Below, piece by piece: positions 15,110-47,632 of a DNA stretch of 64,000 nt. Location of the stretch: contig WARV01000001.1 in NCBI GenBank assembly GCA_013387205.1, forward strand, positions 86 to 64,085, given 5' to 3'. The position numbers were made by a program, and so were the translations under genes. Position 1 is the first letter of the stretch; each line of letters starts with the position of its first letter. The notes under the pieces are model-generated. The model made no database searches and had not been told where the DNA came from. It worked only from the letters and a program-made list of their open reading frames with translations. The stretch is from Patescibacteria group bacterium. Its GTDB lineage: Bacteria > Patescibacteriota > Doudnabacteria > UBA920.

Positions 15110-15174
15110 ATATCATAGCGGAATTACAACCTTAGAAGATGTGATCAACCAGCTAAACGAACATTTTAAGGAAA

Positions 15175-17126: not shown

Positions 17127-17700
17127 ACTGTCGGTCATTATTCCTCATTACCCATACGGTGACGAAATTAATAATAAGTTGGATGAATGTAGGAGCAAAC
17201 TGGAAAATTACGACGAACTTGTATTAGTTGTTAATCAGGGAATTGGTTTTGCAAAAGCAGTGAATTTGGGTTTTAAGATGGCAAAAGGTGATTTTCTGCT
17301 TTTAGTGAGTAATGACGTAATTTATACGGGCGGTGATATTCGGGATTTATGTGACCCAGAAGCAGTGACTTGTCCAGTAGTGAACGGAAGAAGGCAGGAA
17401 TTTTACGGATGCACCTTTTGCTTGCCGAGATGGGTATATGAAAAGATATGTGCCTTAAGAGGTGGAAAACAATTTTTAGATGAACAATTTGATATTGGTT
17501 TTTTTGAAGATGACAATCTAATTATGGAACTTCGCCAACTAAATATTCCTATGCGCTCAGTTAAAACAGTTTCCGCCGTAACCCAAGGCAGCCAGACTAT
17601 GAAGATTTTTGGTTCCGCTGACCCTTATAACAACAACCGCGCGAGATTTATTAAGAAATGGGGTGTAAGCAGTTCTAACCCGATTAAATATGAAGATTAG
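17119..17700 (+). CDS. Family 2 glycosyltransferase (GT-A)
   Basis: LSVIIPHYP, AKAVNLGFKMAKGDFLLLVSNDV and FFEDDNL. Start ATGGCTAA overlaps the DegT stop by 8 nt. Confidence 0.75.
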   Translation: MAKLSVIIPHYPYGDEINNKLDECRSKLENYDELVLVVNQGIGFAKAVNLGFKMAKGDFLLLVSNDVIYTGGDIRDLCDPEAVTCPVVNGRRQEFYGCTFCLPRWVYEKICALRGGKQFLDEQFDIGFFEDDNLIMELRQLNIPMRSVKTVSAVTQGSQTMKIFGSADPYNNNRARFIKKWGVSSSNPIKYED

Positions 17701-18349
17701 CGTAATTTGTGTTACCAACCGTAAAGGCGCAATAGCTTTCTTAAAGAAGCAGTTAGATAAACAGACCTTCAAAGACTTTGATGTTATCGTAGCAGATGAT
17801 AGTGGTGACGAAGATTTTTTCGAGCAGTTCAAGCCACGCCAAAAAAACGAAGGCGATGTTTGGAACTTAAACAAGGCATATAACGACTGCTTGAGCAAAG
17901 TAACTGGGGAACTAATTGTTTTTTTACAAGATTTTATTGAAATTCCCGCTAACGGATTAGAAAGATTTTGGGAACTTTATCAACTTTACCCAAATGATTT
18001 AATTACAGGTTGCGGACATAAATACGAAAACGGCAGGATTGCAGAAACGGACAGTAGGTGCTTTGGCGACAGAAAACTTGTTTCTTCTGACTGGACTTTT
18101 TATGAACTAAATTGGGCTTCTTGTCCCGCAAAAATTGCGCCAAGGTTTGAAGAAGATATGGACAAATTCTACGGTGGGGAAAATATCGTGTTTGCTTTAA
18201 AAGCCCATTTAAAAGGTTCGGAAATCTGGCTAGACCGGATAAACGAATGCAAGGGGCTTGCCCATAACGACAGGCCAAGTGACTGGGAAGATTTACACCA
18301 TAATAAGAATAATCGTTTAAATGACAAAATTAAGAGTTTAATTATATGA
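17690..18349 (+). CDS. Family 2 glycosyltransferase-like protein
   Basis: MKISVICVTNRKGAIAFLKKQLDKQTFKDFDVIVADDSGDEDF (GT-A N-terminus). Overlaps the upstream stop. Confidence 0.6.
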   Translation: MKISVICVTNRKGAIAFLKKQLDKQTFKDFDVIVADDSGDEDFFEQFKPRQKNEGDVWNLNKAYNDCLSKVTGELIVFLQDFIEIPANGLERFWELYQLYPNDLITGCGHKYENGRIAETDSRCFGDRKLVSSDWTFYELNWASCPAKIAPRFEEDMDKFYGGENIVFALKAHLKGSEIWLDRINECKGLAHNDRPSDWEDLHHNKNNRLNDKIKSLII

Positions 18350-19077
18350 ATTTTTCAGACATCCTCAATGAAATAACGTTTTTTACAGGAGCAGACAAGG
18401 GAAACAACACCCCTGCTAGTTTTGTTGATTACCCGATCACTGACCGGACGGCGCATGTTAACAATGCTTTAGAGGAAACTGTCACTGAAATACTGGACTC
18501 CCAGGATGGATGGGATTGGGATGACACAAACAACACCGATTATCCGATTGCGACCACCAATTTAGTTGCCAATCAACAAGATTATTCTTTCCCGGCTTCA
18601 CTGAAGATTTTAAAAATTAAGAGGGTGGAAGTCTGTTTTGATGGGGTGAATTGGAAAGTTGCTCAGCCGTTCGATATCAGCCAAAGACAGCTAGCGACAG
18701 ATACCACTTCCATATCTAATGATTTTTCCACGTTATCGCCCTTTTACGACCCACAGGCTAACTCAGTCTTTCTTTACCCGATTCCGGCCACTAACGTAAC
18801 GGGCGGGTTAAAGGTCTGGTTTTCCCGTGAACCTAGTTTATTTATTACCACCGACACCACCAAAATTCCTGGAATTGATACTCCTTGGCACTCCCGTTTA
18901 TCAATGAAGGCATCTTTGAAATACGCAGTAGCTAAAAACCTACCCCACTTAATAAATACTTTAAAACCACTTTTGGACGAGCAGGAAATGAAGATGAGGG
19001 TTTACTATGGTTCAAAAGAAAAAGACAGAAAATATCAATTTACTTCAGCTTATAACAATAATACTTATGGAAGATAA
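18346..19077 (+). CDS. Hypothetical virion structural protein
   Basis: ORF track entry. Overlaps both neighbours within the late operon. Confidence 0.45.
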   Translation: MNFSDILNEITFFTGADKGNNTPASFVDYPITDRTAHVNNALEETVTEILDSQDGWDWDDTNNTDYPIATTNLVANQQDYSFPASLKILKIKRVEVCFDGVNWKVAQPFDISQRQLATDTTSISNDFSTLSPFYDPQANSVFLYPIPATNVTGGLKVWFSREPSLFITTDTTKIPGIDTPWHSRLSMKASLKYAVAKNLPHLINTLKPLLDEQEMKMRVYYGSKEKDRKYQFTSAYNNNTYGR

Positions 19078-25917: not shown

Positions 25918-26178
25918 ATGGCAAACTTTACCACCCAAACTAAATCCGCATCTGTTTTTACAGGACAAGCCAAATCTTCTGCTCCGACTTTTGCCAATGC
26001 CACCAAAAATTCGGCATCGTTTTCCATAGTTGACAAATTGGTTTTGCTACTTCAGGAAATGGGCGATTTTCTTTTAATGGAAAATGGGGATTTTATTCTA
26101 GTTCGTGGTGTTAGCGATTACGGTTTTGCAAATCCTTCTAAAAACAACAGTTCATTTACCAATTTAACTAAAAACTAA
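25918..26178 (+). CDS. Hypothetical small protein
   Basis: ORF track entry. Precedes the fibre gene. Confidence 0.35.
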   Translation: MANFTTQTKSASVFTGQAKSSAPTFANATKNSASFSIVDKLVLLLQEMGDFLLMENGDFILVRGVSDYGFANPSKNNSSFTNLTKN

Positions 26179-27203
26179 TGGCAAATAAGAAAATATCAGA
26201 ATTAACAACTGGAACACCCCAAAATACTGATTGGGTTCCTTTTGTTGACATAGCAGCCGGAGAAACAAAAAAAGCCACCAAGTCTGATTTGAAAGGTGAT
26301 AAGGGTGACACCGGAAACGCCGCCACTGTAAATGTCGGCTCAACCACTACAGGGGCAGCAGGCACTTCGGCTTCCGTTACCAATTCCGGCACGACTTCTG
26401 CCGCTATCCTAAACTTTACTATTCCAAGGGGAGATACAGGGGCAACCGGAGCGACAGGGGCAACTGGCCCACAAGGGGCAAAAGGAGACACTGGAAATAC
26501 AGGTGCAACAGGGCCACAGGGTATCCAAGGCATTAAAGGTGATAAGGGCGTAAACTGGAAAGGCGCATATAGCGGTTCAACTGCCTATATTATCGACGAC
26601 GCTGTTTCTTACAATGGCAGTTCTTATGTTTGTATATTAGCTTCCACCGGAAACTTACCTACCAATACGACTTATTGGAATTTGATGGCGCAAAAGGGTG
26701 CGGATGGCTCAGGTTCCGGTTCCGGCGACGTTACCGGCCCCGCTTCCTCCACAGATAACGGCATAGTTAGATTTGACGGCTTGACAGGCAAGATAATCCA
26801 AAACTCTACTAACGTTGTGATTGATGATTCAGGCAACGTCGGGATTGGGACGACGAATCCGAGCGAAAAATTAGATGTAAATGGCAACATCACGAATGAA
26901 TATTTGACTTTAGCGGGAAACCAATTCAATGCGGTGGGAACTTCCAATGAAATCGCCGTAAATTATGCTAATAAAACAAAAGATTTGCATGTTTATACAA
27001 ATGTGGGAAACGGATTTTTGGTACAAGGAAGCAGCGGCAACGTCGGCATTGGGACGACTACACCAACAGCCTACCTCCATTTAAAGGCCGGTACAGCCAC
27101 GGCAAACACCGCTCCGATTAAATTAACCGCAGGTGTTGTGAATACTACCCCAGAAACAGGAACTATTGAATTTGATGGGACAGATTTCTATTTAAACATT
27201 TAA
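26178..27203 (+). CDS. Tail fibre protein with collagen-like Gly-X-Y repeats
   Basis: GDKGDTGNAAT...GDTGATGATGATGPQGAKGDTGNTGATGPQGIQGIKGDKG, with two GIGTT(N/T)P repeats at the C-terminus. Confidence 0.7.
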   Translation: MANKKISELTTGTPQNTDWVPFVDIAAGETKKATKSDLKGDKGDTGNAATVNVGSTTTGAAGTSASVTNSGTTSAAILNFTIPRGDTGATGATGATGPQGAKGDTGNTGATGPQGIQGIKGDKGVNWKGAYSGSTAYIIDDAVSYNGSSYVCILASTGNLPTNTTYWNLMAQKGADGSGSGSGDVTGPASSTDNGIVRFDGLTGKIIQNSTNVVIDDSGNVGIGTTNPSEKLDVNGNITNEYLTLAGNQFNAVGTSNEIAVNYANKTKDLHVYTNVGNGFLVQGSSGNVGIGTTTPTAYLHLKAGTATANTAPIKLTAGVVNTTPETGTIEFDGTDFYLNI

Positions 27204-32631: not shown

Positions 32632-33120
32632 ATGATTAATATGGAAGAAAAATTTTTACATTCCAAAGCTCTTTCACCCAATCCCAAAGACTTGCTTGGC
32701 ATGAAAAAGGTATCTATTACCAAAGTTCCAGCTACCGCACTTGCTCATTGCGCTCATGCCATGATGAATGGGGCTGATAAGTACGGAGCGTATAATTGGC
32801 GTGACAAAGCTGTATATGCTTCTATTTACGTTGACGCCTGTTTCCGTCACCTAACGGCCTGGTTTGAAGGTGAAGAAATTGCAACTGATTCCAAAGTTCA
32901 CCATTTAGGACACGCTATGGCTTGTCTGGCAATTATTCTTGACGCCAAAGAAACTGGCAACTTAATTGACGACAGGCCGGTAAACGACCAATCGCGCGGC
33001 GCATATACCAAGGTTTTAGCTGGAATGAATGAAAAGTTTACAGCTAACAAGGACTTAAAAGAGCAAATTATGGAAGAATGGGCTGACAGTGAAGCCTGCC
33101 AAAAACTAGCGGATAAATAA
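32632..33120 (+). CDS. Hypothetical phage protein. Weak resemblance to the phage dATP/dGTP pyrophosphohydrolase N-terminal-type domain (KYGAYNWRD).
   Basis: ORF track entry. Motif recalled from memory and not verified. Confidence 0.3.
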   Translation: MINMEEKFLHSKALSPNPKDLLGMKKVSITKVPATALAHCAHAMMNGADKYGAYNWRDKAVYASIYVDACFRHLTAWFEGEEIATDSKVHHLGHAMACLAIILDAKETGNLIDDRPVNDQSRGAYTKVLAGMNEKFTANKDLKEQIMEEWADSEACQKLADK

Positions 33121-33746: not shown

Positions 33747-34020
33747 GAAACATAAAAGTTTTTTTGACGTTTTAATATACGATTTGACAGCTTTTTAAAA
33801 TAGGCGTATACCTAAGACATAATAAACTAAATAACCACTTATAACCTGTTAAATCGGGTTGCCCCAAATAAAGGGGGCTTGCGGATAAGTGATCAGACTA
33901 AAGGCCATTATTTGTGATACAATAAGAGCCTAGCCCTAAGTTTGGAAACAAAAATAGTGGCCAAAATTCTGTCTGTCACCATAAAGCCCGCAAGCTGAGT
34001 GGTTGGCAGGCAGTTTTTTT

Positions 34021-34890
34021 ATGAACAACGCGATTGTTACTTATTTGGAGTGGAAGGGGATAGCCCATGAGAGAGCATCTAAAGCCTATATAAAACCATT
34101 ACACAGGCTGGCTGAATATTTAAACAAAAAAGTTAGTGAACTTACTACGGATGATGTAAAAAAGTTCCTCAAATATTTAAAAGAGGAGCTTCCCAAGCTG
34201 TCTACAAGGGGGGATTGGCGCACAAACTTTTATTTCCATACGAATGTCATCCGTGATTTTATTAAACATTGGAATGATGAGGGGGTGTGTAATGTAAGGC
34301 CAGGAATTATCGAGGTTCCCAAGTACAGTTTCAACCCTTACCCATCGGTTACTATTGAAGAATTTGAGATGATGGATGATTATCTAGCCACCGAGCCAGA
34401 CAATTTTGCCAATCTTCAGAAACGGATGATTATACACTTTTTATGGTGGACGGGCGTTAGGGTATCAGAGCTTACCGATTTAAGATGGACTATTATTAAC
34501 CAATCCGAGCAGGGATTACCAATAAAAAATAAAAAGAACGGTGATATCAGATATATATTTTGGCCACCCCAAACCCACTTACTGCTTTTAAGATTTATCA
34601 GGGAAAGAAAACAGTTTACTGGGAATAGCCTATTAGTGACTTACCTGGGGAAAATGCACCCTCGCTGTGTCCAAAGGTTTTTAGAAAATTTAGGGAAAAA
34701 ACTGGGGATAACTTACCACCTATCACCACACTGTTTTCGTCAGGGTTGGGCAAAATATAGGTTGGAAAAGGGGGCGGATCTAAAACTAATAAAAGACGGA
34801 TTAGGCCACACTTCTTACGATTCTACGGACAGATACTTAATACTAAATTATAAACTGCAAAGGGAAAGAGCGGTGAAATATTTGACATAA
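34021..34890 (+). CDS. int: Tyrosine site-specific recombinase (phage integrase)
   Basis: Catalytic residues in context: TGVRVSEL (Arg), HCFRQGWA (His-x-x-Arg), LGHTSYDSTDRYL (His, Tyr). The track starts at 34003; ATG 34021 is preferred. Confidence 0.85.
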   Translation: MNNAIVTYLEWKGIAHERASKAYIKPLHRLAEYLNKKVSELTTDDVKKFLKYLKEELPKLSTRGDWRTNFYFHTNVIRDFIKHWNDEGVCNVRPGIIEVPKYSFNPYPSVTIEEFEMMDDYLATEPDNFANLQKRMIIHFLWWTGVRVSELTDLRWTIINQSEQGLPIKNKKNGDIRYIFWPPQTHLLLLRFIRERKQFTGNSLLVTYLGKMHPRCVQRFLENLGKKLGITYHLSPHCFRQGWAKYRLEKGADLKLIKDGLGHTSYDSTDRYLILNYKLQRERAVKYLT

Positions 34891-35820: not shown

Positions 35821-35932
35821 TTTTCCTCCTACTGGTAGATGAACGACAGATTAAGACTATCAAAATATGTATATGCTGTAAAGAAGCTTGTGCAAATAAA
35901 AAACTCCCCAGATGGGGAGTTTTTTATTTGAT

Positions 35933-37123
35933 TTAATTTCCACCATTTTGTTTATAGCATCCTAAAATTTTAGGCGCATAGTTTCTTGTTTCGTTATAGC
36001 CAGTATTACACGTAGCAGTGGATCCTTGTGGGCCATTATAGAGACATTCCCATTTCTTTGTCGGCTGTCCTGCGCAGTCGTTTTGCCCTGCGCAAGTGAC
36101 GCTGTTTTGGCAGGCCATGCTGCCTCCGTTGTATCCAGCGGCGATATTTCTAACGTCGTTGCCGCAGCCATTGCGGCTAAGCAACTCTAAATATTTTGCT
36201 CCGATGCAAATGCTCTTGGTCGCGTTATTTGGGTTATTAAGCCATGCGCATGTTATGTTATCTGTCACTCCGCATGATGATTTTAAGTTGTTTGCCGTCT
36301 GGGGCAAAAGCTGCATAAGTCCGCACGAACCTGCATTAGATGTTGAATTTATATTACAACTCGATTCATTAACCATAATGGATTTAATTAGCGCTTCAGT
36401 ATTAATTCCTGGGATGCTGATTGCCGCAGCTGCATCCTTTATTGCAGTCCCATAATTGTTGCAATTGCTGTTCCAGCAAGTTACGTTTGCTGCTTGGCAC
36501 AAGTTGGCTGCTGTCATACTACTTACATTGGAACATGACCCATTGACTGAATTAACGCCAGCCTGATCGCGGGCAACGCCCTGGTATAAATTGGCAGTCG
36601 GAGCTTCCATTAACTCCAATCTTACACTCTGCGGCTGGATATTTTGGAATTTGACCAGGTCAGGATTAATAGCTCTTAGGAAGATAAAGCCAATGAATAA
36701 AATGATTAAGGATGTTACGGTACTGACTAATATGTTTTTCGCTTTGTCTACCGATTCCTGGCTGCCATCTGCAGACATATAAATATATCCGGCTATAACA
36801 ATAAAAAATACGCCGATTATGGAAGCTAAGATTATGGAAAAGCGATAAAGCCTGTTGATGCAGGTGTAAAGGTCGTTTTGGGCAGCATTATTTGCACCTA
36901 CTTGGCTGTCTGACCCGGTACCGAAAAAACTGCCGTTTTGGCTCCAATATTTTCCTTGGTTATTTTCAGTCGGCGCGCACAAATATTGTTTAATTTGGTC
37001 AGACACATGGTACTGGGTGTAATTTGGCGAGCTGCTAGTTTGTGCAAAAGCTAAATTTGCATAAGACAAAATAACTTGGACAAGAAGAAATGCCAAAAGA
37101 TATGTTTTTAATTTATTGGTCAT
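35933..37123 (-). CDS. Secreted/membrane-anchored lytic transglycosylase (SLT domain)-like protein with Cys-rich C-terminus
   Basis: N-terminal hydrophobic signal, an internal TM helix, and the SLT-like motif VNESSCN...AGSCGLMQLLPQTA. Confidence 0.55.
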   Translation of the reverse strand: MTNKLKTYLLAFLLVQVILSYANLAFAQTSSSPNYTQYHVSDQIKQYLCAPTENNQGKYWSQNGSFFGTGSDSQVGANNAAQNDLYTCINRLYRFSIILASIIGVFFIVIAGYIYMSADGSQESVDKAKNILVSTVTSLIILFIGFIFLRAINPDLVKFQNIQPQSVRLELMEAPTANLYQGVARDQAGVNSVNGSCSNVSSMTAANLCQAANVTCWNSNCNNYGTAIKDAAAAISIPGINTEALIKSIMVNESSCNINSTSNAGSCGLMQLLPQTANNLKSSCGVTDNITCAWLNNPNNATKSICIGAKYLELLSRNGCGNDVRNIAAGYNGGSMACQNSVTCAGQNDCAGQPTKKWECLYNGPQGSTATCNTGYNETRNYAPKILGCYKQNGGN

Positions 37124-37164: not shown

Positions 37165-38460
37165 TTATTGTAGGAAATCTAAAGGATTATAAGTGTAGCC
37201 ATACGGGATCTTGTAAGGCCCGTAAATTCTGCCGTAGGCACCGTCGGATACCCCGAAGCCTTCTGCGTCGTAAACGCCAAAATGGATGTGGTAGCCTCTC
37301 TCCGGACCGTAAAGCTTTTTGGTTGTATTGCCGGTATTGCCTTCGTAACCGATCAAATCTCCTTGCTGCACTTTTTGCCCTGGTTTTACAATAAAGCTCC
37401 TGAAATGAGCGTATAATGTAATAATTTCTCTTGTACCGGTTTTTGTCGAAATGGAATGCTTAATTGCCACCCAGTTGCCGTAAGAAGCATCGGACCTGTC
37501 AGTATACAAAACCGTGCCGTCAGCTGCCGCATAAATCGGCTGGGCAGCCGGAGCCGCCACGTCAATACCGTTGTGGAAGTTGTATCCTAAGGCGGTAAAG
37601 CCCGTATTGCCGTATTTTTGCGTCAAAACGCCATCCATAGGCCAGGCAATAACGCCTTTTGACGGATTAATAGACCTGTTGCCGAGCTTGGTTCTGATTT
37701 TGCTATCCAAGTCTTCTATCTCTTTTTGCAAATTTTGTTCTTCTGTTTTACTGACAGATAGAAGTTTTTGGTAATTGCTTTCCAAACCGCGTGTCTGGTT
37801 TAAAAGCGTTTGCTTTTGGCCGCGCTGCTGGTTTAAGGAATCTTGGGTGATTTGCAGCTGGTTTTTCAGCTCCATCATTTTATCCATGTTAACCTGTAAT
37901 TCGTGCTGCTGCTGTTCCATCTTGGCTTTTAAATCTTTGATCTTTTGGGTCAGTTGGAAAATTTTATCCTGATAGCTTTGCGTGTATTGGACCTGGTCCA
38001 AAAATTGCGATAGGTTTTCGCTGCCAACTGTCGTCCTTAAAGCGTATTCGCCGTCAAATTCGTTTAATTCCTTAATCAGCTGGGCTAGGATTTTTTTATT
38101 TTCCTGAATGTCCGCAGCTTTTTGCTCAATCATTTTTTGCAGCTCGCTGATTTGCAACTTGGTATCTTCAATCTGGGTTTCTTTGGCTTGGATTTGCAGC
38201 TCAGTTGCGGCTATTTGATTATCGTAAATGGCTATTTCATTTTTTAAAGTGTTCGATTTTTTCCTGGTTTCGTCAATCTGCTGGGTGTATTGTTTAATCT
38301 GCTTGTTCAAACTGTCCAATTTCTTTTGCGTTTCGGATTTTTGTGCGTTAAGCTGGTCAACTGTGGAATCTGCCAGGGCATTATAAAAACCCAAGCTGCC
38401 AATTAAAAGTACAGCCAATAAACTCAAGGCTTTTGTTTTTATTTCTTTTCGGTATTTCAT
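37165..38460 (-). CDS. M23-family peptidoglycan metalloendopeptidase with long N-terminal coiled-coil (EnvC/LytM-like)
   Basis: HNGIDVAAPAAQPIYAAADGTV, GNWVAIKH and HIHFGVY motifs. N-terminal TM plus coiled-coil. Track start at 38514; the internal MKYRKE at 38460 is the likelier start. Confidence 0.8.
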   Translation of the reverse strand: MKYRKEIKTKALSLLAVLLIGSLGFYNALADSTVDQLNAQKSETQKKLDSLNKQIKQYTQQIDETRKKSNTLKNEIAIYDNQIAATELQIQAKETQIEDTKLQISELQKMIEQKAADIQENKKILAQLIKELNEFDGEYALRTTVGSENLSQFLDQVQYTQSYQDKIFQLTQKIKDLKAKMEQQQHELQVNMDKMMELKNQLQITQDSLNQQRGQKQTLLNQTRGLESNYQKLLSVSKTEEQNLQKEIEDLDSKIRTKLGNRSINPSKGVIAWPMDGVLTQKYGNTGFTALGYNFHNGIDVAAPAAQPIYAAADGTVLYTDRSDASYGNWVAIKHSISTKTGTREIITLYAHFRSFIVKPGQKVQQGDLIGYEGNTGNTTKKLYGPERGYHIHFGVYDAEGFGVSDGAYGRIYGPYKIPYGYTYNPLDFLQ

Positions 38461-38539
38461 TGCTATTATTATACCACAAATTGCTGTTTTTTCGTAGATA
38501 ATGCGCAAAATCAAAATAGTATGCGAATTATGCGAAAAA

Positions 38540-38562
38540 CCCCGCCTCTTAAAGAGGCGGGG
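38540..38562 (-). terminator. Intrinsic terminator hairpin CCCCGCCTCTT...AAGAGGCGGGG, copy 1 of a recurrent motif
   Basis: Immediately after the gltX stop, with a T-run on the minus strand. Confidence 0.6.
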
Positions 38563-38573
38563 TAAAATATTTA

Positions 38574-40088
38574 TTATAATTTATCCATCCCTGTCTGTAG
38601 CCGCTTTATCACTTCGTCTTTACCGTATCCCAAAGCCAGGACGGCTGCCACGTCAAACGGGGGCGGGCTGGCCTGCATGCCGGTTAGAGCCGCGCGCATT
38701 GGCCAAAGAACCGATCCGTTATCAAAATTATTATTTGCAATGAAATCTTTAATTTCTTTTTCCAATTCAGCTTTTATAAATTTATTTTCAGAAAAGCCTG
38801 ACAATAAGTCTGTAAGCATTGATAATTTATTTTTAGCATCTGTTGCATCAGCTTTTTTCCAAACCAGCAGGGAAGCGTCGTATTCCGGAAGTGCAAAAAA
38901 ATATTTCGTCCTCTCCCCTATCTCAGAAAGTTTTTTTAGCCTCTCTTTTTCCAGGACAGTAATCGCTTCCAAAAACCCGCGTTTAAATTTTTGCGTGTCA
39001 ACTCCACTCTTTTGCCAGTATGGAATGAGTAAATCCGTAAGCTCCCTATCCGTTCTGCTGCGGATATACAAGCCGTTCATCCAATCCAGTTTGTTAGTAT
39101 CGAAAATCGCGGCGGCTTTGTTGATTTTTGCCAAATCGAACTGGGAAATTAAATCCTGCATGGAGAAAATTTCCTGCTCAGTCTTTGGGTTCCATCCCAA
39201 AAACGCGACAAAGTTAACGAGTGCTTCCTTCAGGTAGCCTTTATTCAAAAAGTCTTCCACCGCCACGTCGCCCTGGCGCTTGGATAATTTAGTTTTGTCA
39301 GGATTAACAATAAGCGGGATGTGCGCCATTAGCGGAATTTGCCAGTTGAATGCCTGGTAAAGCAAAACATGCTTTGGCGTAGACGGCATCCATTCCTCGC
39401 CGCGGATTATGTGGGAGATTTGCATGAAGTGGTCGTCGATCACTACTGCCAAATGGTAGGTCGGAAAACCGTCGGACTTCAACAGAACATGGTCGTCCAA
39501 TATTTTGTTTTCGTAGGTAATGTCGCCGTAAATTAAATCGTGGATGACTGTTTGCCCTTCCAGTGGTATAGCGAATCGAACAACAGGGTTTCGTCCTTGC
39601 TCGCGGATTTTCGCCATTTCTTCTTCAATTTGCTCTTTGGTCAAATTGCGGCATTTTCTGTCATACATCGGCGGTTTTTTAAGCGCTACCTGCTCTTTGC
39701 GCACTTCTTCGAGCCGCTCTTCGCTACAAAAACAATAGTAGGCATGGCCTTTGCTGATAAGCTCTAACGCATGCTTCTGGTAGAGAGGCAAGCGCTGCGA
39801 TTGCAGGTATGGGGCAAGCTCCCCTCTTTCTTTAACCTGATTGTTTTCGTCTAAATAAAATCCTTCATCGAATTCAATCCCGAGCTGCTTCATAACCTTC
39901 AAAAGATTGTCTACCGCGCCTTCCACGAGCCTTGTCCTGTCCGTATCCTCAATGCGCAAAACCAGCTTGCCGTTATTTTTCCTGGCAAACAAAAATTCAA
40001 ACAGCGCTGTCCGCAAAGATCCAATGTGGACATACCCTGTCGGGCTCGGCGCAAAACGCACGCGGATTTGTGAGGTCGTATCAGTCAT
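38574..40088 (-). CDS. gltX: Glutamyl-tRNA synthetase
   Basis: PSPTGYVHIGSLRTA (HIGH), KLSKRQG (KMSKS) and class I GluRS architecture. Confidence 0.9.
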   Translation of the reverse strand: MTDTTSQIRVRFAPSPTGYVHIGSLRTALFEFLFARKNNGKLVLRIEDTDRTRLVEGAVDNLLKVMKQLGIEFDEGFYLDENNQVKERGELAPYLQSQRLPLYQKHALELISKGHAYYCFCSEERLEEVRKEQVALKKPPMYDRKCRNLTKEQIEEEMAKIREQGRNPVVRFAIPLEGQTVIHDLIYGDITYENKILDDHVLLKSDGFPTYHLAVVIDDHFMQISHIIRGEEWMPSTPKHVLLYQAFNWQIPLMAHIPLIVNPDKTKLSKRQGDVAVEDFLNKGYLKEALVNFVAFLGWNPKTEQEIFSMQDLISQFDLAKINKAAAIFDTNKLDWMNGLYIRSRTDRELTDLLIPYWQKSGVDTQKFKRGFLEAITVLEKERLKKLSEIGERTKYFFALPEYDASLLVWKKADATDAKNKLSMLTDLLSGFSENKFIKAELEKEIKDFIANNNFDNGSVLWPMRAALTGMQASPPPFDVAAVLALGYGKDEVIKRLQTGMDKL

Positions 40089-40120: not shown

Positions 40121-41473
40121 TCATGCGGTTTTTATCAATTCGGGCATCTGGGACAAATCGCTTAAAACCAATTTAATAAGTTCAGATTTTTGTTCGGTTA
40201 TGCTCTCTTTTAAATTCTGCCAGGGAACCCATTTGTATTCCACAAACTCATCCCAATCCAAGACGACTTCTTTTTCCTGCCCGAAAAATTTAAAATATGC
40301 AATTTTTTGTTCTTGGCCTTTGTAGTGATATCTCTTCCCAATGAACAGCGGCCTTTTGCCCATATCCTTCCAAAGGTACGCATGGGAATGGTTGGATATT
40401 TTAATCAAGTTGACGCTTCTCATTGCCGTTTCTTCCCAAAGCTCACGCTTTGCTCCTTCTGCAACATCTTCCCCAGGCTCAATCCCGCCCTGCGGCAACT
40501 GCCAATAATTTTCAAAATAATTTTTTGGATAGCCTAAAACATTAATCACTCCTTTTTCAGGATTGAACTTGCCAATAAAAATTTCGTTTTTGTCGTTCAG
40601 TACAACACTTACTACATTGGGCCTATAGGGCAGGCTTAAAAATACTTTGGTTTTGATTAATGCCCAAATTAGGCCAAAGGTGGCATTAAAGATGCGTTTA
40701 ATTCTGTAAGGCTGGGTAAATAGCCTAAATAGCCATTCTAGGCCCATTTTACGCATAAATTTGGGCGGATTTAGGCGTTTTCCTGCCAGATAATCAAAGG
40801 TACCGCCTAGGCCGATAATCATTTTTACAGGCAAATTTTCAAGGTTGGCCGCTATCCAGCGCTCCTGCTTAATTGGCCCGTATGCGACAAATAACAGGTC
40901 GGGTCGGGCTTTTTTTATGTCCTCGATTATACTGGGATCGTCTGGATTTTTGCCTGAAAAAAACAAGGACTGATTTTGACGGCCGTTTAAATTGGTCATA
41001 TGCGAAGAGAGTTTGTTTGCGGCCAGTTTTGCCGTATCGCCAAAACCTCCAAGCAAATAAATTGACCAGTTATTTTTGGCAGCCATCTTTGCCAAATCCA
41101 AAACCAGAGACGAGCCGGGAATGGTTTCTTTGATTTCAGATTTCACCCAGGAAGGCTTGAACAAAATTGCAGCCACACTGTATTTGGCTTGCCAGATCGC
41201 CTGGATAATTTTTGTGTAATATTTTTTCGCGGTAAGCGGGATAGTCACGTACTTGGCAGCCCAGATAATTCCCATGCCATCAGCAACCGCTATGTCTGCT
41301 TTGTTGAGCATGTCCAAAATTTTGCGGTCATTTAAAGCCGCCAGCAGAAATTCGGAATATAAAGTTGTCATCCAGGTTTTTTGGTTTTGCCTGATGCGAT
41401 TTTCTAAATTTTCAAGCAGTTCATTTTTACTAAGCTCGTCTACCTTTAACCCGGCAATATCTATCTTATTCAT
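40121..41473 (-). CDS. Fusion protein: WecB/TagA/CpsF-family glycosyltransferase N-terminal domain with a C-terminal NUDIX hydrolase domain
   Basis: TagA-like core (ADIAVADGMGIIWAAKY...GPIKQERW). C-terminal Nudix box GGIEPGEDVAEGAKRELWEETAM. Track start at 41716; ATG 41473 (MNKIDIAGL) is preferred. Confidence 0.7.
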   Translation of the reverse strand: MNKIDIAGLKVDELSKNELLENLENRIRQNQKTWMTTLYSEFLLAALNDRKILDMLNKADIAVADGMGIIWAAKYVTIPLTAKKYYTKIIQAIWQAKYSVAAILFKPSWVKSEIKETIPGSSLVLDLAKMAAKNNWSIYLLGGFGDTAKLAANKLSSHMTNLNGRQNQSLFFSGKNPDDPSIIEDIKKARPDLLFVAYGPIKQERWIAANLENLPVKMIIGLGGTFDYLAGKRLNPPKFMRKMGLEWLFRLFTQPYRIKRIFNATFGLIWALIKTKVFLSLPYRPNVVSVVLNDKNEIFIGKFNPEKGVINVLGYPKNYFENYWQLPQGGIEPGEDVAEGAKRELWEETAMRSVNLIKISNHSHAYLWKDMGKRPLFIGKRYHYKGQEQKIAYFKFFGQEKEVVLDWDEFVEYKWVPWQNLKESITEQKSELIKLVLSDLSQMPELIKTA

Positions 41474-41542
41474 ATATAATAGTATAACTGATTTTAACAT
41501 TTTTAGGTATCCAAAATTAAAAAAATAAGTTATAATGTACAC

Positions 41543-41833
41543 ATGGAAAGTATAGGAAAAATTGTTAAAATTAAGGGCAAATCGGAAAGGCAAAAGGTTA
41601 AAGTTAACCCTTACCTTCACTCCCCTGCCCACCTTTTGGCCGACGAGTTGTGCCTGAAATTTAATGATAAAAAGCACTTCGGGTTTTACTTGAAAATGGC
41701 CACTCTGTATGACCATAATTTTTTAAGGAATTTGGCCGGGCAAGTGTTGGAAGGCAAAAACGTCAAAACCCCGGGGAAGCTGTTCGCATATTTGATTAAG
41801 AAAAACAATCAGGAGAAGAAAATTTTTAATTGA
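41543..41833 (+). CDS. Hypothetical small basic protein
   Basis: ORF track entry. Confidence 0.35.
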   Translation: MESIGKIVKIKGKSERQKVKVNPYLHSPAHLLADELCLKFNDKKHFGFYLKMATLYDHNFLRNLAGQVLEGKNVKTPGKLFAYLIKKNNQEKKIFN

Positions 41834-45415: not shown

Positions 45416-47632
45416 TTACGGAATATAGATGTCTATTGGCGTTTGCCCAAGAAGGTTGCCGCTGAAATCTTTGGCGAGGAAATTTAAGTGATATGGGCCG
45501 CTGCTGTTCCAATTCCAGCTTGCCAAATCGACCCAGGCTTCCTTGTGTGGCGCGTCCTGCTGGCTGTCGCCCATCTGGTTCAACTGGTCGCCATCAACTT
45601 GCCAATACATGTTATAAGCGTTCAAATCCGTATCGCTTAGCACTGCCTTGAATGGCTGGGCGCCTGATACATGAGATCCGAAAGTCGGCCACCATATGCT
45701 TACTGTTTTGTTAGCCGGAGGATTAACCTGCAGCGTGGTTCCCCCGCCTTGCCGGCTCCAGCTTACTTTAGCCACCGCATTTACGGTGTGTTCGTAATAC
45801 TCTATCTTGACCAGGTGAGTTCCAGCCGTAAGATTTTTTGTCGCGTTATAAGTAGTCGCCGGCTGGTCAAAGAATTTGTCTATGACTGGAGTACCATCCA
45901 CCAAAACCCTTATGCCGTCATCGGCGGTAGCTGCAAAATTATAGTTATCTGCACTGAACTGGAAATTGCCTTGCCAGACCGCGGAGAAATTGTCAGACGG
46001 CACCTTAGGGTCGGGCGAACCCGCGCCCCAATCAAAATTAATCGAAGGGTCATTCCTGCTTAAGATGAAATTGTCAAAATTTCTGCCTGAATAATAGCAT
46101 CCGGTAAAGCTGTTGTTTGACGCAGTCGGGCAAGAGCCCTGTGACGGATTAATGCTACCGTTTTGGGCCCAGGACAACTTAGCAACCGCGCCGCCAGTGT
46201 GCTCATAATATTCCATTTTGACTAAATGCGTACCCGCAGCTAAAGTTATCGTGCCTGTGTAAGTTGTCGGGGGTTGGTCGATAAATTTATCGATTACCGG
46301 GATGCCGTCTACGAACACCCTGACTCCGTCATCAGCTGTCGCGGTAAAAGTGTAGTTGCCGGCGTTGAAACTGAAGTTCCCTTGCCAAACAGCCGAAAAA
46401 TTATCAGATGGCATTTTAGGGTCTGGAGATCCTGTTCCCCAATCGAAATTCATTGTCGGATCTATCCTTGTCATTACGAGGTTGGTAAAATTTTTGTCTG
46501 CGTAGTAGCATCCGGTAAAGGCATTGGTGGCAGGACCAGGACAGACAATCGTTGAAGTCAGGTGTGCCGAAGATTCACCTTCGGAAAACCAGTTTGTCAT
46601 TATCTGCTGGGCTTTCTTATTTTGGGGTGTGTATCCTGTATCCCCTTGTCCGCCTGCGTTTGGATCACTGCTCCAATCCCACAGCATCACGCCGTTTATG
46701 AAGCTTTGGCTGTTCCAGTATGAGAACAAGGCTTCGTAAGCATTGGCTTGCGTGGTTTCATCAAACCCTCCGCCCATGTTGTAATCCCACGGATGGTTAA
46801 ATGAATTCGGCACGCTTTTATAACCAATTTCCGTAAACATAATCGGCTTGTTCCATTTCTGGGCCAAGGGCTGAATGTCTGACATGTTATAGTTGTTCCA
46901 GGCGTTGGTCAGGCTCTGCGCTGAATTGTCCGTAAACATGTCATAATAAGCCGATATGCCTATAAAATCCAAAGCGTCCCAAAATTGTATATTGTTTTTT
47001 TCATCGACCATGCCGTTGTTCGGCGGCCCCCAGTTGGCACTGTAGGTCAGCTTGCCTGAATACAGTTTCCTGACGTTGCTGATCATGTTTCTCCACTGCT
47101 GGGTGTTGTCGTAGTTTTGGTCCGCGCCTGCCATGGAAGCCAGCTCTGCGCCGACACAATAAGATTCCGCCCCGTTCTGCTGGGCAATGGTCGCGTAGTG
47201 GGCAAGCATGCTATTGTAATTCGCAAACCAAGTTTGGCGGTCGGACGGGCGGATATTAGCCCTCCATTCCCCGGTGTAGCTTTGCAGGTGAGGCTTGACC
47301 ATAACCTTTAATCCCAATGAGTGGGCATATTTTATCGCTGCTACCAGCGAATCATCTGTTGGCGTGTTCCAGCCTTTTTGGATGTCAGTGGAATACAGGT
47401 TGGACTGGTAATAAGGTATTATCAGCGCCACGTAATTGGCTTTGGCCGCCGCTAAATTTTTTAAGGACTGCTGGAAAGTCTGGCTAGAAAAATCCGTATC
47501 CCAGCGCGGTTCAATAGAAGCGCCCTTTTGCCAATTTGAAACCGCAGCGGATGCGGTTTTAATTCCAATAAATGAAACAAACAGCCCCAAAAACGCCCCA
47601 ATTACGGTTAGTGTTAGGATTTTTTTTCTCAT
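45416..47632 (-). CDS. Secreted clan GH-A (GH5/26/113-like) glycoside hydrolase with two C-terminal PA14 domains
   Basis: Signal peptide. Acid/base region CVGAELAS and nucleophile-like IMFTEIGY. Two repeats of GCYY..NF...DP..NFDWG.GSPDPK.PSDNFSAVWQGNF (PA14). Confidence 0.7.
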   Translation of the reverse strand: MRKKILTLTVIGAFLGLFVSFIGIKTASAAVSNWQKGASIEPRWDTDFSSQTFQQSLKNLAAAKANYVALIIPYYQSNLYSTDIQKGWNTPTDDSLVAAIKYAHSLGLKVMVKPHLQSYTGEWRANIRPSDRQTWFANYNSMLAHYATIAQQNGAESYCVGAELASMAGADQNYDNTQQWRNMISNVRKLYSGKLTYSANWGPPNNGMVDEKNNIQFWDALDFIGISAYYDMFTDNSAQSLTNAWNNYNMSDIQPLAQKWNKPIMFTEIGYKSVPNSFNHPWDYNMGGGFDETTQANAYEALFSYWNSQSFINGVMLWDWSSDPNAGGQGDTGYTPQNKKAQQIMTNWFSEGESSAHLTSTIVCPGPATNAFTGCYYADKNFTNLVMTRIDPTMNFDWGTGSPDPKMPSDNFSAVWQGNFSFNAGNYTFTATADDGVRVFVDGIPVIDKFIDQPPTTYTGTITLAAGTHLVKMEYYEHTGGAVAKLSWAQNGSINPSQGSCPTASNNSFTGCYYSGRNFDNFILSRNDPSINFDWGAGSPDPKVPSDNFSAVWQGNFQFSADNYNFAATADDGIRVLVDGTPVIDKFFDQPATTYNATKNLTAGTHLVKIEYYEHTVNAVAKVSWSRQGGGTTLQVNPPANKTVSIWWPTFGSHVSGAQPFKAVLSDTDLNAYNMYWQVDGDQLNQMGDSQQDAPHKEAWVDLASWNWNSSGPYHLNFLAKDFSGNLLGQTPIDIYIP

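Follow-up and report, generated by a model that had tools for sequence, protein, structure and literature searches.

A gene of the Patescibacteria carries a glycosyltransferase of the WecG/TagA/CpsF family in its first half and a Nudix hydrolase in its second. The question raised by this locus is whether the hydrolase serves the sugar transferase or is a separate enzyme carried on the same polypeptide. The genomes of Patescibacteria are tiny, and little is known about either the polymers of their envelope or their machinery for RNA decay. The gene was analysed within a contiguous stretch of 64,000 nucleotides, referred to as the window. An earlier note on this DNA had proposed that the Nudix domain hydrolyses the UDP released by the transferase or regulates its nucleotide-sugar donor. 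Both domain families are well studied and it is their combination that stands out: neither the TagA-Nudix fusion nor the related LigT-Nudix fusion was described in the literature searched.

The fusion gene and its start site

40121..41473, minus strand: fusion coding sequence, 450 aa and a TGA stop
41474..41716, minus strand: in-frame upstream extension of the 531-aa call

The fusion was read as a single open reading frame on the minus strand; the earlier note gave no strand. The ORF check of 40121-41473 revealed no stop or frameshift between the two halves, a break which the note itself had named as evidence against a fusion. Both Pfam domains were detected far above their thresholds: PF03808 (Glyco_tran_WecG) with 4e-44 and 150.8 bits (cutoff 27.4), and PF00293 (NUDIX) with 6.2e-16 and 59.1 bits (cutoff 21.1) at aa 283-434. 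With one uninterrupted frame and both domains present, the single-gene fusion stood. The proposed division into about 250 and 150 residues was near the actual one of about 280 and 170. The AlphaFold model of the fusion protein had a mean pLDDT of 94.8 and a pTM of 0.90. The databases name the protein only 'WecB/TagA/CpsF family glycosyltransferase', which hides the intact second enzyme.

The longest possible reading frame reaches 41716 and gives 531 aa, and this start is used in the NCBI record. The homologues are 437-455 aa long and begin with MxKIDIAGL, in line with the N-terminus MNKIDIAGL obtained from the ATG at 41473. The upstream extension was present in no homologue and overlaps a highly conserved divergent gene at 41543-41833. 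Because of the homologue lengths and starts and this overlap, the 531-aa start was ruled out and the originally proposed start at 41473 was retained as the right one. The database start is probably wrong, and the extension is most likely an untranslated start-site over-call.

The glycosyltransferase half

40769..41473, minus strand: GT26 (WecG/TagA/CpsF) core, aa 1-235
41135..41230, minus strand: helical insert (aa 82-113), about 32-35 aa long and specific to this subfamily
40634..40768, minus strand: TagA C-terminal tail, aa 236-280, with the catalytic Arg triad R250/R257/R260 and E246/W247

In addition to the Pfam match, the first half was recognised by TIGR00696 with a score of 105.6 (cutoff 69). 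The solved relative was Thermoanaerobacter italicus TagA (7MPK, 2.9e-31). The GT-E fold of the GT26 enzymes TagA/TarA (T. italicus 5WB4, 5WFG, 7MPK, 7N41) is shared, with a Foldseek TM-score of 0.88 on the target, although the fusion is only 27% identical to TagA. The residues Thr37, Asp65, Gln167, Glu168, Asp191, Glu210, Trp211, Arg214, Arg221 and Arg224 of TagA, the catalytic and tail roles of which were described previously (PMC6493773, PMC8784642), and the non-polar patch of the tail are common to both proteins. The catalytic residues of the fusion core are T37, D65, Q203, E204 and D227. The equivalents of TagA D65, Q167, E168, D191, R214, R221 and R224 were invariant across 120 homologues, so that D65, R250, R257 and R260 of the fusion were kept in 120/120; T37 was Thr in 119 of the 120 and Ser in one. 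The E210 and W211 equivalents were invariant in an alignment of 81 sequences.

The fusion differs from TagA by the helical insert after strand 4 and by the whole Nudix enzyme after the tail. The insert, which neither TagA nor the short Parcubacteria-type fusions possess, breaks the 7MPK match in two and forms helices 85-105 and 107-113 in the predicted model. The D65..G120 spacing is 54 residues here and 19-20 in the short subgroup; in the aligned rows of that subgroup TagA also lacks the insert.

The earlier identification as a TagA-type N-acetylmannosaminyltransferase holds for the family but goes too far for the sugar. The score with the equivalog model of TagA/TarA sensu stricto (NF041710) was 116.1 bits against a cutoff of 350, and the EpsA and WecG models gave similar scores, likewise below their own cutoffs. 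The specificity of TagA for ManNAc is determined by Asn39, the ligand of the ManNAc 3'-OH, and Gln167 (PMC8784642). Gln167 was retained, but the Asn39 position was Tyr in 120/120 long-form proteins, and UDP-ManNAc is for this reason not established as the donor; in the short Parcubacteria-type fusions Asn39 was present in 29 of 30. The position of the uracil-stacking Tyr137 was aligned to Ser in 118/120, in a locally gapped part of the alignment, and the ribose-contacting Asp191 was invariant. At the position of TagA Arg83, Lys or Thr was found. Judged from the Asn39 position, the donor sugar of the long subfamily is probably not ManNAc, and the label 'N-acetylmannosaminyltransferase' should not be carried over to it. 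By analogy with TagA, the acceptor would be a polyprenyl-diphosphate-linked sugar.

The Nudix half

40124..40633, minus strand: RppH/NudH-type Nudix domain, aa 281-450
40421..40489, minus strand: Nudix box GGIEPGEDVAEGAKRELWEETAM, aa 329-351

The Nudix box reads G-x5-E-x7-RE-L-W-EE-T-A-M and is intact at all catalytic positions, as had been noted with the pattern GX5EX7REUXEEXGU. It departs from the consensus only in having Ala instead of the penultimate Gly, a Gly that 98 of the 120 relatives keep. A non-canonical box, the second finding by which the note would have been refuted, is thus not the case here. The conserved positions were invariant or nearly so: G329 in 120/120, E335 in 113/120, R343 in 118/120, E344 in 120/120, E347 in 119/120 and E348 in 120/120.

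The type of the Nudix enzyme was determined by several comparisons. The best NCBIfam match was the RppH model NF001938, with 98.2 bits over positions 8-168 of 172; the equivalog cutoff of 116 was not reached, and four other RppH models fell further short. NudI was matched weakly (1.8e-4). The sequence matches with solved structures were lupin Ap4A hydrolase (1F3Y, 7.8e-13) and E. coli RppH (8e-7). In Foldseek, the best Nudix match was E. coli RppH (1.8e-10, TM 0.77), followed by the lupin enzyme. The entries of E. coli RppH filled ranks 15-26 and, together with lupin Ap4A hydrolase (rank 27), ranks 15-31 with TM-scores of 0.70-0.78, and NudI, MutT and further Ap4A hydrolases came behind them. 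Among stand-alone relatives with a name, the closest bear the annotation RppH, e.g. that of Bartonella. E. coli RppH (NudH/YgdP; 4S2X, 6VCK, 7SP3) and lupin 1F3Y are thus the best match in both structure and sequence. RppH and the fusion share the YRPNV start, the WQxPQGG entry to the box and the GQxQ and EFxxxxW motifs; the identity is about 21-30%, and ahead of the box the fusion carries some 14 additional inserted residues.

The phosphate and Mg ligands of RppH, the roles of which are known (PMC7144940), were conserved. The positions R8, N10, Q37, E53, E57, Y77, Q95, Q97 and E120 of RppH were invariant and K140 was K or R; in the fusion protein the ligands are R284, N286, Q328, E344, E348, Y366, Q387, E409 and K429. 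The counterpart of Y77 was established in a larger alignment as the invariant Tyr366. By sequence and fold the Nudix half belongs to the RppH/NudH clade, with a complete Mg- and polyphosphate-binding site. A nucleotide-sugar type of Nudix enzyme was contradicted by the NF001938 score, the Foldseek match and the conserved ligands.

In contrast to the phosphate site, the cleft with which RppH holds the base of the second RNA nucleotide (R27, S32, V137 and F139, with Y144 nearby) was not retained. The R27 position is Phe in this protein, Arg in 82/120 and deleted in the short subgroup. In the long TagA-fused proteins, the S32 position is Y/F (Tyr), V137 is His (Thr in this protein), F139 is E/Q and Y144 is A, whereas the stand-alone relatives retain V/I, F and Y. 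The loss of the base cleft speaks for a change of substrate, or at least a different mode of recognition.

The tail helix and the junction

The two enzymes are joined through the tail of the transferase. Its non-polar membrane patch consists of F239, L245, L248 and F252, and of the four TagA positions which were mutated for solubilisation, 203 and 216 correspond to Phe and 209 and 212 to Leu in this protein. The highest hydrophobic moment of the whole fusion protein was found in this segment, in the windows starting at residues 243-258. Membrane association of the fusion via the tail would be consistent with these features. In the predicted model the tail closes with a long amphipathic helix (255-279), which is the connector to the Nudix strand 283-292. 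There is no linker between the TagA helix and the first Nudix strand, i.e. the junction has zero length. TagA-only orthologues stop about 3-15 residues beyond the connector helix.

The R260-to-R284 spacing was 23 residues in 120/120 proteins, and 22-23 in the short subgroup, whereas all the other inter-motif spacings were variable. A zero-length connector which is invariant across such deep divergence goes beyond the needs of co-expression and hints at a functional or allosteric coupling of the two halves.

The neighbouring genes

38574..40088, minus strand: gltX, glutamyl-tRNA synthetase
37165..38514, minus strand: coiled-coil M23 peptidase
35933-37123, minus strand: SLT/pilin-like gene
35893..35930, no strand: 17-bp palindromic, terminator-like hairpin

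The gltX gene (Pfam 1.5e-103) lies 32 nt downstream of the fusion and accompanied it as a conserved partner in all the lineages that were compared. The M23 peptidase (Pfam 6e-24) is the third member of a triad, [X-Nudix]-gltX-M23, which by synteny is kept from Doudnabacteria to Parcubacteria, while the upstream genes differ. In consensus scans, no minus-strand terminator-like site was detected between 41473 and 35933, and the hairpin was found just past the SLT/pilin-like gene. The fusion, gltX, M23 and SLT/pilin-like genes are likely a four-gene transcription unit that ends at this hairpin.

The neighbourhood had been characterised as centred on the cell wall, but the surroundings are equally those of tRNA and translation, with gltX, fmt, def, two RNase_T-like exonucleases and queA nearby; across the lineages only gltX and M23 are conserved partners. 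Genes for TagO, MnaA, TagB/D/F, TagGH and LCP proteins were found neither in the 64-kb window nor in the 8-10 kb flanks of the related loci. A PglC-like Bac_transf gene was detected at one related locus (L002) only.

Distribution and states of the locus

The search for the same fusion in other genomes, suggested earlier, gave a clear answer. The TagA-Nudix architecture was present in all of the best 120 of 561 significant matches, which represent at least 120 clusters at 90% identity, and in 62 of the best 79 species-representative loci. The fusion is common in Patescibacteria, and the architecture can be called unusual, as it had been, only relative to model organisms.

The remaining 17 of the 79 loci carried a TagA-only orthologue in the identical slot. 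No relocated Nudix gene was found within 8 kb of these, and only a few tens of bases separate the TagA-only gene from gltX. In 100/100 bootstrap trees, the state changed between TagA-Nudix and TagA-only at least 7 times, corresponding to at least 7 independent losses of the Nudix domain from TagA orthologues that occupy the same position by synteny.

In other Patescibacteria, the slot ahead of gltX-M23 is occupied by LigT-Nudix proteins (e.g. KKU39550.1, annotated 'RNA 2',3'-cyclic phosphodiesterase'), so that the locus has three states: TagA-Nudix, TagA alone and LigT(2H phosphoesterase)-Nudix. The Nudix domain of LigT-Nudix is likewise C-terminal and of the same clade, but the N-terminal part is a PF02834 phosphoesterase, the amphipathic membrane helix is lacking and the family is small (9 clusters). 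In the tree, the LigT-linked domains nest within the TagA-fused Nudix clade (support of 70/100 for the fused clade and 15/100 for LigT monophyly).

Among the close short matches checked, no genuine stand-alone member of the fused Nudix clade was found, and the domain occurred only at the C-terminus of fusions. Six candidates that looked like split genes were rejected: P0121 and P0123 are fragments that start within the connector helix, P0128 and P0157 share their clusters with fusions of 435 and 432 aa, and P0135 and P0138 are likely fragments, on contigs of 652 and 1158 nt. The TagA/LigT-Nudix locus appears to be the main home of the RppH-like clade in this lineage.

Discussion

Our preferred reading, a tentative one with slightly less than an even chance, is that the gene encodes one bifunctional, membrane-peripheral polypeptide with two chemically independent enzymes, in which the Nudix half acts as an RppH-type pyrophosphohydrolase. 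Module 1 (aa 1-280) would be a GT26 glycosyltransferase of the inverting kind, from the TagA/WecG/CpsF family. If it works as TagA does, Asp65 would deprotonate the acceptor hydroxyl of the polyprenyl-diphosphate-linked sugar, Arg257 and Arg260 of the tail would grip the diphosphate of the nucleotide-sugar donor, and the tail would fold over the active site once its non-polar patch enters the membrane. Module 2 (aa 281-450) would cut the pyrophosphate linkage of 5'-terminal oligophosphates, as its clade does, the candidate substrates being the 5' ends of RNA and dinucleoside polyphosphates, with free NDP or NTP cut at a lower rate. The fusion would be a lineage trait of the Patescibacteria operon [X-Nudix]-gltX-M23, by which the hydrolase is co-expressed with the operon; in the TagA state, the hydrolase would be parked rigidly at the membrane surface.

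The Nudix domain looks more like a separate enzyme travelling with the sugar transferase than like one that assists it, because 17 of the 79 loci are TagA-only, the state changed at least 7 times, and LigT-Nudix proteins of the same clade occupy the same slot. The same losses with TagA kept, and the LigT fusions, run against the earlier proposal that tied the Nudix domain to TagA chemistry. The preferred reading is weakened by the lost base cleft, the NF001938 score of 98 against 116, the invariant zero-length connector and the lack of a genuine stand-alone member of the clade among the close short matches checked.

Conceptual precedents for the trimming of nucleotide-sugar donors or by-products are NudD/WcaH (Gmm, the GDP-mannose mannosyl hydrolase of the colanic-acid cluster) and the Golgi UDPases and GDPases. 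These are separate proteins of other Nudix subfamilies or unrelated folds, and no specific similarity of the fusion to any of them was detected in the NCBIfam, solved-structure sequence and Foldseek searches. A housekeeping role of this kind, in which the Nudix half cleaves the released UDP to UMP and Pi or trims the UDP-sugar donor and eases product inhibition, is less likely than the preferred reading but still a serious rival to it. UDP is a competitive inhibitor of TagA (PMC6493773), and the chemistry of RppH on 5'-diphosphates is formally NDP -> NMP + Pi. E. coli RppH is described as hydrolysing NDPs and NTPs slowly (PMC7144940), structures of RppH with GDP and UTP exist, and the enzyme can remove sugar-P-P-U caps, which contain a UDP-sugar moiety (PMC12541447). 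The invariant connector, the polar and aromatic remodelling of the base cleft, which is confined to the TagA-fused group, and the Rosetta-stone logic, by which fused proteins often act in one pathway, also favour this role. However, the module was repeatedly lost from retained transferases, and the same Nudix clade is fused to LigT at the same locus in proteins with no transferase. Arg257/Arg260 and Arg284 lie at opposite ends of the 25-residue helix, about 30 Å apart as estimated from the helix length, and with this separation no channel is evident. The UMP formed beside a reversible step of the TagO/WecA type would be expected to drive that step backwards, and E. coli RppH acts slowly when its substrate has two phosphates (PMC12541447).

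A specialisation of the RppH derivative for UDP-sugar-derived caps (sugar-P-P-U-RNA) on transcripts is considerably less probable. Such a substrate class would tie TagA, which binds UDP-sugars, to LigT, which works on RNA ends. In E. coli, RppH takes off glucose, galactose and GlcNAc caps only slowly and there is no fast enzyme for this task (PMC12541447), and the fused clade retains the phosphate site while the base pedestal is swapped. The argument is entirely inferential, and the sequence has no feature that points specifically to the recognition of a cap.

The position of the Nudix N-terminus, which with the phosphate ligand R284 starts 4-5 residues past the membrane-binding helix, brings the lipid carrier into consideration as well. 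The Nudix enzymes E. coli NudI/NudJ and plant NUDX1 hydrolyse prenyl diphosphates. A membrane-held Nudix domain could similarly cleave polyprenyl-diphosphate or a stalled polyprenyl-PP-sugar and recover polyprenyl phosphate, and a sugar would fit the polar/aromatic cleft (Y, H, E/Q) better than a base held by stacking. We regard this as improbable: the only relation seen to the prenyl-diphosphate enzymes is at the superfamily level, with NudI matched weakly, the LigT-fused members lack the membrane helix and have LigT joined via a short polar stretch, and a literature search linking Nudix to undecaprenyl diphosphate found nothing.

A nucleotide-gated switch seems just as improbable. Binding and hydrolysis of an alarmone or nucleotide, such as (p)ppGpp or Ap4A, in the Nudix half would reposition the TagA tail and adjust glycopolymer synthesis to the physiological condition of the cell. 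The activity of TagA depends on the docking of the tail over the active site, and the Nudix domain is attached where that tail ends, always at the same spacing. E. coli RppH is described as binding (p)ppGpp and as being regulated by association with the cell-wall-precursor enzyme DapF. In the RppH-DapF complex (6D13, 5YGU), as it is described, an RppH-type hydrolase is physically joined to an envelope-precursor enzyme, as it is here; that complex is non-covalent and its partner is a diaminopimelate epimerase, whereas the fusion is covalent and rigid with a membrane-peripheral glycosyltransferase, and homology of the partners is not implied. The repeated loss of the module without loss of the transferase and the LigT-fused state speak against the switch.

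An Ap4A-hydrolysing Nudix functionally linked to the adjacent aminoacyl-tRNA synthetase was also considered; aminoacyl-tRNA synthetases make Ap4A, and GluRS is a poor producer of it. An artefact, i.e. separate genes wrongly merged during assembly or sequencing, or a decaying Nudix half, was ruled out by the continuous architecture in the best 120 of the 561 homologues from many independent assemblies and in the 62 species-representative genomes, by the conserved catalytic residues and by the invariant junction length.

The analysis marks a conserved three-gene locus of Patescibacteria, [TagA or LigT]-Nudix / gltX / M23. For specialists of RppH and TagA it offers a natural experiment: an RppH-clade enzyme with a rebuilt specificity pocket is mounted without a linker on the regulatory tail of TagA, with matched module-less orthologues and a sister form fused to an RNA 2',3'-cyclic phosphodiesterase. 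It is conceivable, though less likely than not, that an RppH-type Nudix was recruited here to glycan chemistry and cleaves sugar-linked pyrophosphates from its rigid mount on the membrane-binding tail of a GT26 enzyme; the candidates may be the UDP or UDP-sugar handled by the transferase, intermediates in which a sugar is linked to polyprenyl-PP, and UDP-sugar-derived RNA caps. If such a recruitment took place, a specificity pocket of the carbohydrate type (Tyr/His/Glu for Ser/Val/Phe) would be seen here for the first time in the RppH clade, and Patescibacteria would link their envelope-precursor pools to the turnover of nucleotides or RNA 5' ends.

Domain architecture of the fusion gene

The fusion gene is an uninterrupted open reading frame with a TGA stop codon, and its 450-aa product begins with MNKIDIAGL. 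The following features of this part of the window are considered:
40121-41473, minus strand, TagA-Nudix fusion gene
40421-40489, within the fusion gene, Nudix box (aa 329-351)
41543-41833, plus strand, divergent 96-aa ORF without a Pfam match

The N-terminal part matched the WecG/TagA/CpsF glycosyltransferase domain of Pfam (4e-44; 150.8 bits, cutoff 27.4) and, among solved structures, Thermoanaerobacter italicus TagA (7MPK, 2.9e-31). The NUDIX domain was located at aa 283-434 (Pfam 6.2e-16; 59.1 bits, cutoff 21.1), and the C-terminal part matched the structures of lupin Ap4A hydrolase (7.8e-13) and E. coli RppH (8e-7). With both Pfam domains in one uninterrupted translation, and no stop or frameshift between the halves, the earlier note was right to describe a single gene with two domains. 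The Nudix box, GGIEPGEDVAEGAKRELWEETAM, was also found to be intact as had been claimed: all the catalytic positions are kept and the box is not non-canonical. Its penultimate consensus Gly is Ala in the query protein and Gly in 98 of the 120 relatives.

The maximal ORF extends to 41716 (531 aa), which is the start used by the NCBI record. This start was rejected, since the homologues are 437-455 aa long and share the MxKIDIAGL start, and since the extension would cross the conserved divergent gene at 41543-41833. The originally proposed coordinates, 40121-41473, are therefore correct.

The divergent 96-aa ORF shares 55-83% identity across the Doudnabacteria loci, in many of which it is at least as conserved as its neighbours, and it is also found in loci with TagA only; it is a real gene. 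By eye, no Shine-Dalgarno-like purine run was seen in the 27 nt preceding the ATG at 41473 (41474-41500, minus strand), and TATACTATTATAT lies directly 5' of this ATG. The leader of the fusion gene is thus possibly very short or absent.

Structural model and the junction of the domains

The AlphaFold model, built with 81 sequences, had a mean pLDDT of 94.8 and a pTM of 0.90. In Foldseek searches against the PDB, the first half matched TagA (TM 0.88, normalised to the target), and the top Nudix match of the second half was E. coli RppH (1.8e-10, TM 0.77), with lupin Ap4A hydrolase, NudI, MutT and others ranked below it. Judged by the model and the conserved residues, both halves look like working enzymes.

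T. italicus TagA is 244 aa long and ends 20 residues past Arg224 (PMC8784642). The equivalent of this end in the fusion protein is residue 280 (Arg260 plus 20), and the RppH-type start YRPNV occupies residues 282-286; there is no linker between the two halves. In the model, a single helix (255-279) leads into the Nudix strand 283-292, and the TagA-only orthologues end approximately 3-15 residues from the end of this helix. The gap from Arg260 to Arg284 was 23 residues in all 120 proteins, while all the other distances between motifs varied. The rigidity of the junction is the strongest hint of more than a casual joining of modules. Estimated from the helix length, the phosphate-binding sites of the two domains would be about 30 Å apart and the Nudix site would be near the membrane-facing helix.

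Conserved residues of the two domains

Conservation was scored on an alignment of 120 fusion proteins with 46-63% identity to the query. The functional residues of TagA include the proposed base Asp65, Thr37, Gln167, Glu168 and Asp191, together with Glu210, Trp211, Arg214, Arg221 and Arg224 of the C-terminal tail (PMC6493773, PMC8784642). Asp65, Gln167, Glu168, Asp191 and the three Arg residues were invariant among the 120 proteins, Thr37 was kept in 119 and replaced by Ser in one, and Glu210 and Trp211 were invariant in the 81-sequence alignment. The solubilisation of TagA required the mutation of non-polar tail residues (I203E, L209Q, L212K, I216E; PMC8784642). The fusion protein has Phe, Leu, Leu and Phe at these positions and no other part of it is as amphipathic as its glycosyltransferase tail, so that peripheral membrane binding is expected by analogy with TagA.

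The earlier note pointed out a resemblance of this half to TagA-type N-acetylmannosaminyltransferases, but that name was not upheld for it. The TarA equivalog model of NCBIfam scored 116 against a cutoff of 350, and the EpsA and WecG models scored about equally. The ManNAc specificity of TagA is determined by Asn39 and Gln167, and Tyr137 stacks on the uracil (PMC8784642). Gln167 is kept, but Asn39 is replaced by Tyr in all 120 long-form (query-type) proteins; the position of Tyr137 aligns to Ser in a gapped part of the alignment, and that of Arg83 holds Lys or Thr. All the long-form proteins also share an insert at aa 82-113, which is helical and about 32-35 aa long. By its sequence this half is a GT26 family member, to which the name of a ManNAc transferase is not assigned.

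In the Nudix half, Gly329, Glu335, Arg343, Glu344, Glu347 and Glu348 were invariant or almost so among the 120 proteins. The top Nudix model of NCBIfam was RppH NF001938, with 98.2 bits over positions 8-168 of 172, just below its cutoff of 116. Among the named free-standing relatives, the closest bear the annotation RppH, for example in Bartonella. In E. coli RppH, the 5'-phosphates and Mg are bound by R8, N10, Q37, E53, E57, Y77, Q95, E120 and K140, and the second RNA nucleotide is sandwiched in a cleft of R27, S32, V137 and F139 (PMC7144940). Mapped by alignment, all the phosphate and Mg ligands are invariant in the family, with Lys or Arg at K140. The cleft, in contrast, is not conserved: the positions of S32, V137 and F139 have become Tyr/Phe, His and Glu/Gln in the long TagA-fused proteins, and that of R27 is Phe in the query. 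The free-standing relatives retain the Val/Ile and Phe of the cleft. An additional insertion of about 14 residues precedes the Nudix box. With its phosphate and Mg ligands kept and RppH as its best model, this half is placed in the RppH/NudH clade; its polyphosphate site is complete, whereas its specificity pocket, where the nucleobase cleft is replaced, has been rebuilt. Its relationship to the known nucleotide-sugar Nudix enzymes is at the superfamily level only.

Distribution and evolution of the fusion

Both domains were present in all of the best 120 of 561 significant database matches. A scan with one genome per species yielded 575 relatives, and the best 79 loci comprised 62 fusions and 17 TagA-only genes encoding 267-315 aa. 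Most of these loci bear the label Candidatus Doudnabacteria, Patescibacteria group or 'uncultured Candidatus Saccharibacteria' (TPA MAG records); two TagA-only loci are assigned to Acidobacteriaceae (L078) and Verrucomicrobiia (L081) in their records. The fused state is seen, for example, on contig CAYYWQ010000001.1 (1.21 Mb), and the TagA-only state on CAYQEU010000001.1 (681 kb). The TagA-only genes have the small conserved ORF, def, two RNase_T-like genes and fmt divergently upstream, and gltX, the M23 peptidase and the SLT/pilin-like gene downstream; given this identical genomic slot, they are orthologues of the TagA part of the fusion. No Nudix gene was found within 8 kb of the 17 TagA-only genes. 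On trees of the TagA half, every one of 100 bootstrap replicates required at least seven changes to account for the presence or absence of Nudix (mode eight). Extra separate Nudix-family genes 4-10 kb from the fusion gene were noticed in two related loci, L022 (13198-13398) and L082 (20911-21212), so at least some of these genomes hold more than one Nudix.

The exhaustive search with the Nudix half returned 38 representatives with a TagA part, many free-standing RppH-like proteins, and five representatives, about 327 aa long, that carry a LigT/2H phosphoesterase domain ahead of the same Nudix. The latter family is small (nine clusters in a search with one LigT protein) and is annotated by NCBI only as 'RNA 2',3'-cyclic phosphodiesterase'. 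Examples of about 327-334 aa are encoded in loci L084 (8001-8984) and L085 (8001-9005) and include database proteins P0159, P0168, P0172 and P0305; in L084 the stop of the gene lies beyond the gltX start, with an overlap of 14 nt. LigT-Nudix would be a candidate bifunctional RNA-end enzyme, combining a 2',3'-cyclic phosphate enzyme with a 5'-pyrophosphohydrolase.

The nearest Nudix domains to those of LigT-Nudix belong to the short TagA-Nudix subgroup (395-411 aa) of other Patescibacteria, including Parcubacteria. In this subgroup, Asn39 and Arg83 are retained, the insert is missing and the connector is 22-23 residues long. Directly after both the short TagA-Nudix (L082, L083) and LigT-Nudix (L084, L085) genes follow gltX and then the M23 peptidase; their upstream genes differ. 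In the Nudix tree, the fused modules formed one clade without free-standing proteins (support 70/100), within which the LigT-fused domains were interleaved with the short TagA-fused ones (LigT monophyly only 15/100). The simplest history is an old TagA-Nudix fusion ahead of gltX-M23, followed by many Nudix losses in Doudnabacteria and by an in-place swap of the N-terminal partner for LigT in a few lineages.

Genomic context

The following features of the neighbourhood are referred to:
35893-35930, terminator-like hairpin after the SLT/pilin gene (consensus match only)
35933-37123, minus strand, 396-aa protein with a T4SS-pilin-like segment and an SLT lytic transglycosylase domain
37165-40088, minus strand, X-gltX-M23 gene order
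45416-47632, minus strand, 738-aa GH113 (beta-mannanase family, 6e-61) and PA14 protein

The neighbourhood had been described as cell-wall-centred, which is half right: the M23, SLT/pilin-like, GH113-PA14 and MltG genes are there, but so are the translation and tRNA genes gltX, def, fmt, queA and two RNase_T-like exonucleases. Only gltX and M23 accompany the fusion gene across lineages, and no canonical teichoic-acid genes were found within the 64-kb window. The X-gltX-M23 order, seen in the window and in loci L001, L002 and L082-L085, is shared by genomes ranging from Doudnabacteria to the Parcubacteria type, in which the genes around it vary; a long coiled coil precedes the M23 domain of its peptidase. 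A consensus scan detected no minus-strand terminator inside the four-gene block, and a promoter-like site (consensus match only) lies within the 3' end of the fusion gene, ahead of gltX. The SLT gene is the final one of the putative operon; its pilin-like segment scored just under the Pfam threshold (26.1 vs 26.6 bits), and L002 has a pilin-like protein at the same position. The GH113-PA14 gene lies between fmt and mltG and has a relative (57% identity) in L003, being absent from most related loci.

The genes in the left half of the window resemble those of an integrated prophage or a phage-like island:
400-34900, whole region; example genes at 11504-12346, 18346-19077, 26178-27203, 32632-33120 and 34003-34890 (all plus strand)
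12779-18349, plus strand, glycan-modification block

The region encodes an SU10-type major capsid protein (1e-62), an SU10 adaptor, a collagen-repeat protein, a dATP/dGTP diphosphohydrolase N-domain, a tyrosine integrase at the right edge, and many large ORFs without a Pfam match. ARAGORN found no tRNA genes in the whole window, which leaves no tRNA in view as the attachment site. The block at 12779-18349, consisting of a 776-aa GT2 and TPR protein, GT1, a DegT/DnrJ/EryC1 aminotransferase and two short GT2 genes, suggests phage-encoded modification of surface glycans.

Discussion

The analysis shows a single polypeptide with two intact catalytic sites and a rigid, linker-free junction, a Nudix half of the RppH clade whose specificity pocket is altered, and a conserved locus that exists in three states (TagA-Nudix, TagA alone and LigT-Nudix). 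The reading tentatively preferred here, at slightly below even odds, is a bifunctional protein whose modules are chemically independent. At the inner membrane face, the GT26 module would glycosylate a polyprenyl-PP-linked acceptor, and the Nudix module would cleave 5'-terminal oligophosphates or dinucleoside polyphosphates, as in its clade. The fusion may keep the Nudix co-expressed with the gltX-M23 operon and, when its partner is TagA, place it at the membrane too. Independence is indicated by the fate of the Nudix module at the same locus, where it is lost or is paired with an RNA-end enzyme without a glycosyltransferase.

A more novel reading, in which an RppH-type Nudix has taken up the cleavage of sugar pyrophosphates at the membrane, has a rather low probability. 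The main rival, also of rather low probability, is a refined form of the earlier note's idea, namely that the Nudix half hydrolyses UDP or the UDP-sugar donor of the glycosyltransferase. Such hydrolysis is chemically reasonable: UDP is a competitive inhibitor of TagA (PMC6493773), sugar-P-P-U caps, which are UDP-sugar moieties, are cleavable by RppH (PMC12541447), and RppH takes orthophosphate off 5'-diphosphates and hydrolyses NDPs slowly (PMC7144940). The invariant connector and the polar pocket would also suit it; the repeated loss of Nudix and the LigT-fused state speak against it. Less likely are readings in which the Nudix half cleaves lipid-linked pyrophosphates, is an enzyme dedicated to sugar-cap decapping, or works through the TagA tail as a nucleotide-gated switch.

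No description of a TagA-Nudix or LigT-Nudix fusion was found in the literature searched. Both domains are well known, and hundreds of copies are deposited in databases under a generic glycosyltransferase name. The parts of TagA-Nudix are ordinary and its likeliest reading is two independent enzymes; as a bifunctional architecture it is solid, occurs widely, has gone unannotated and brings a clean natural experiment with it.
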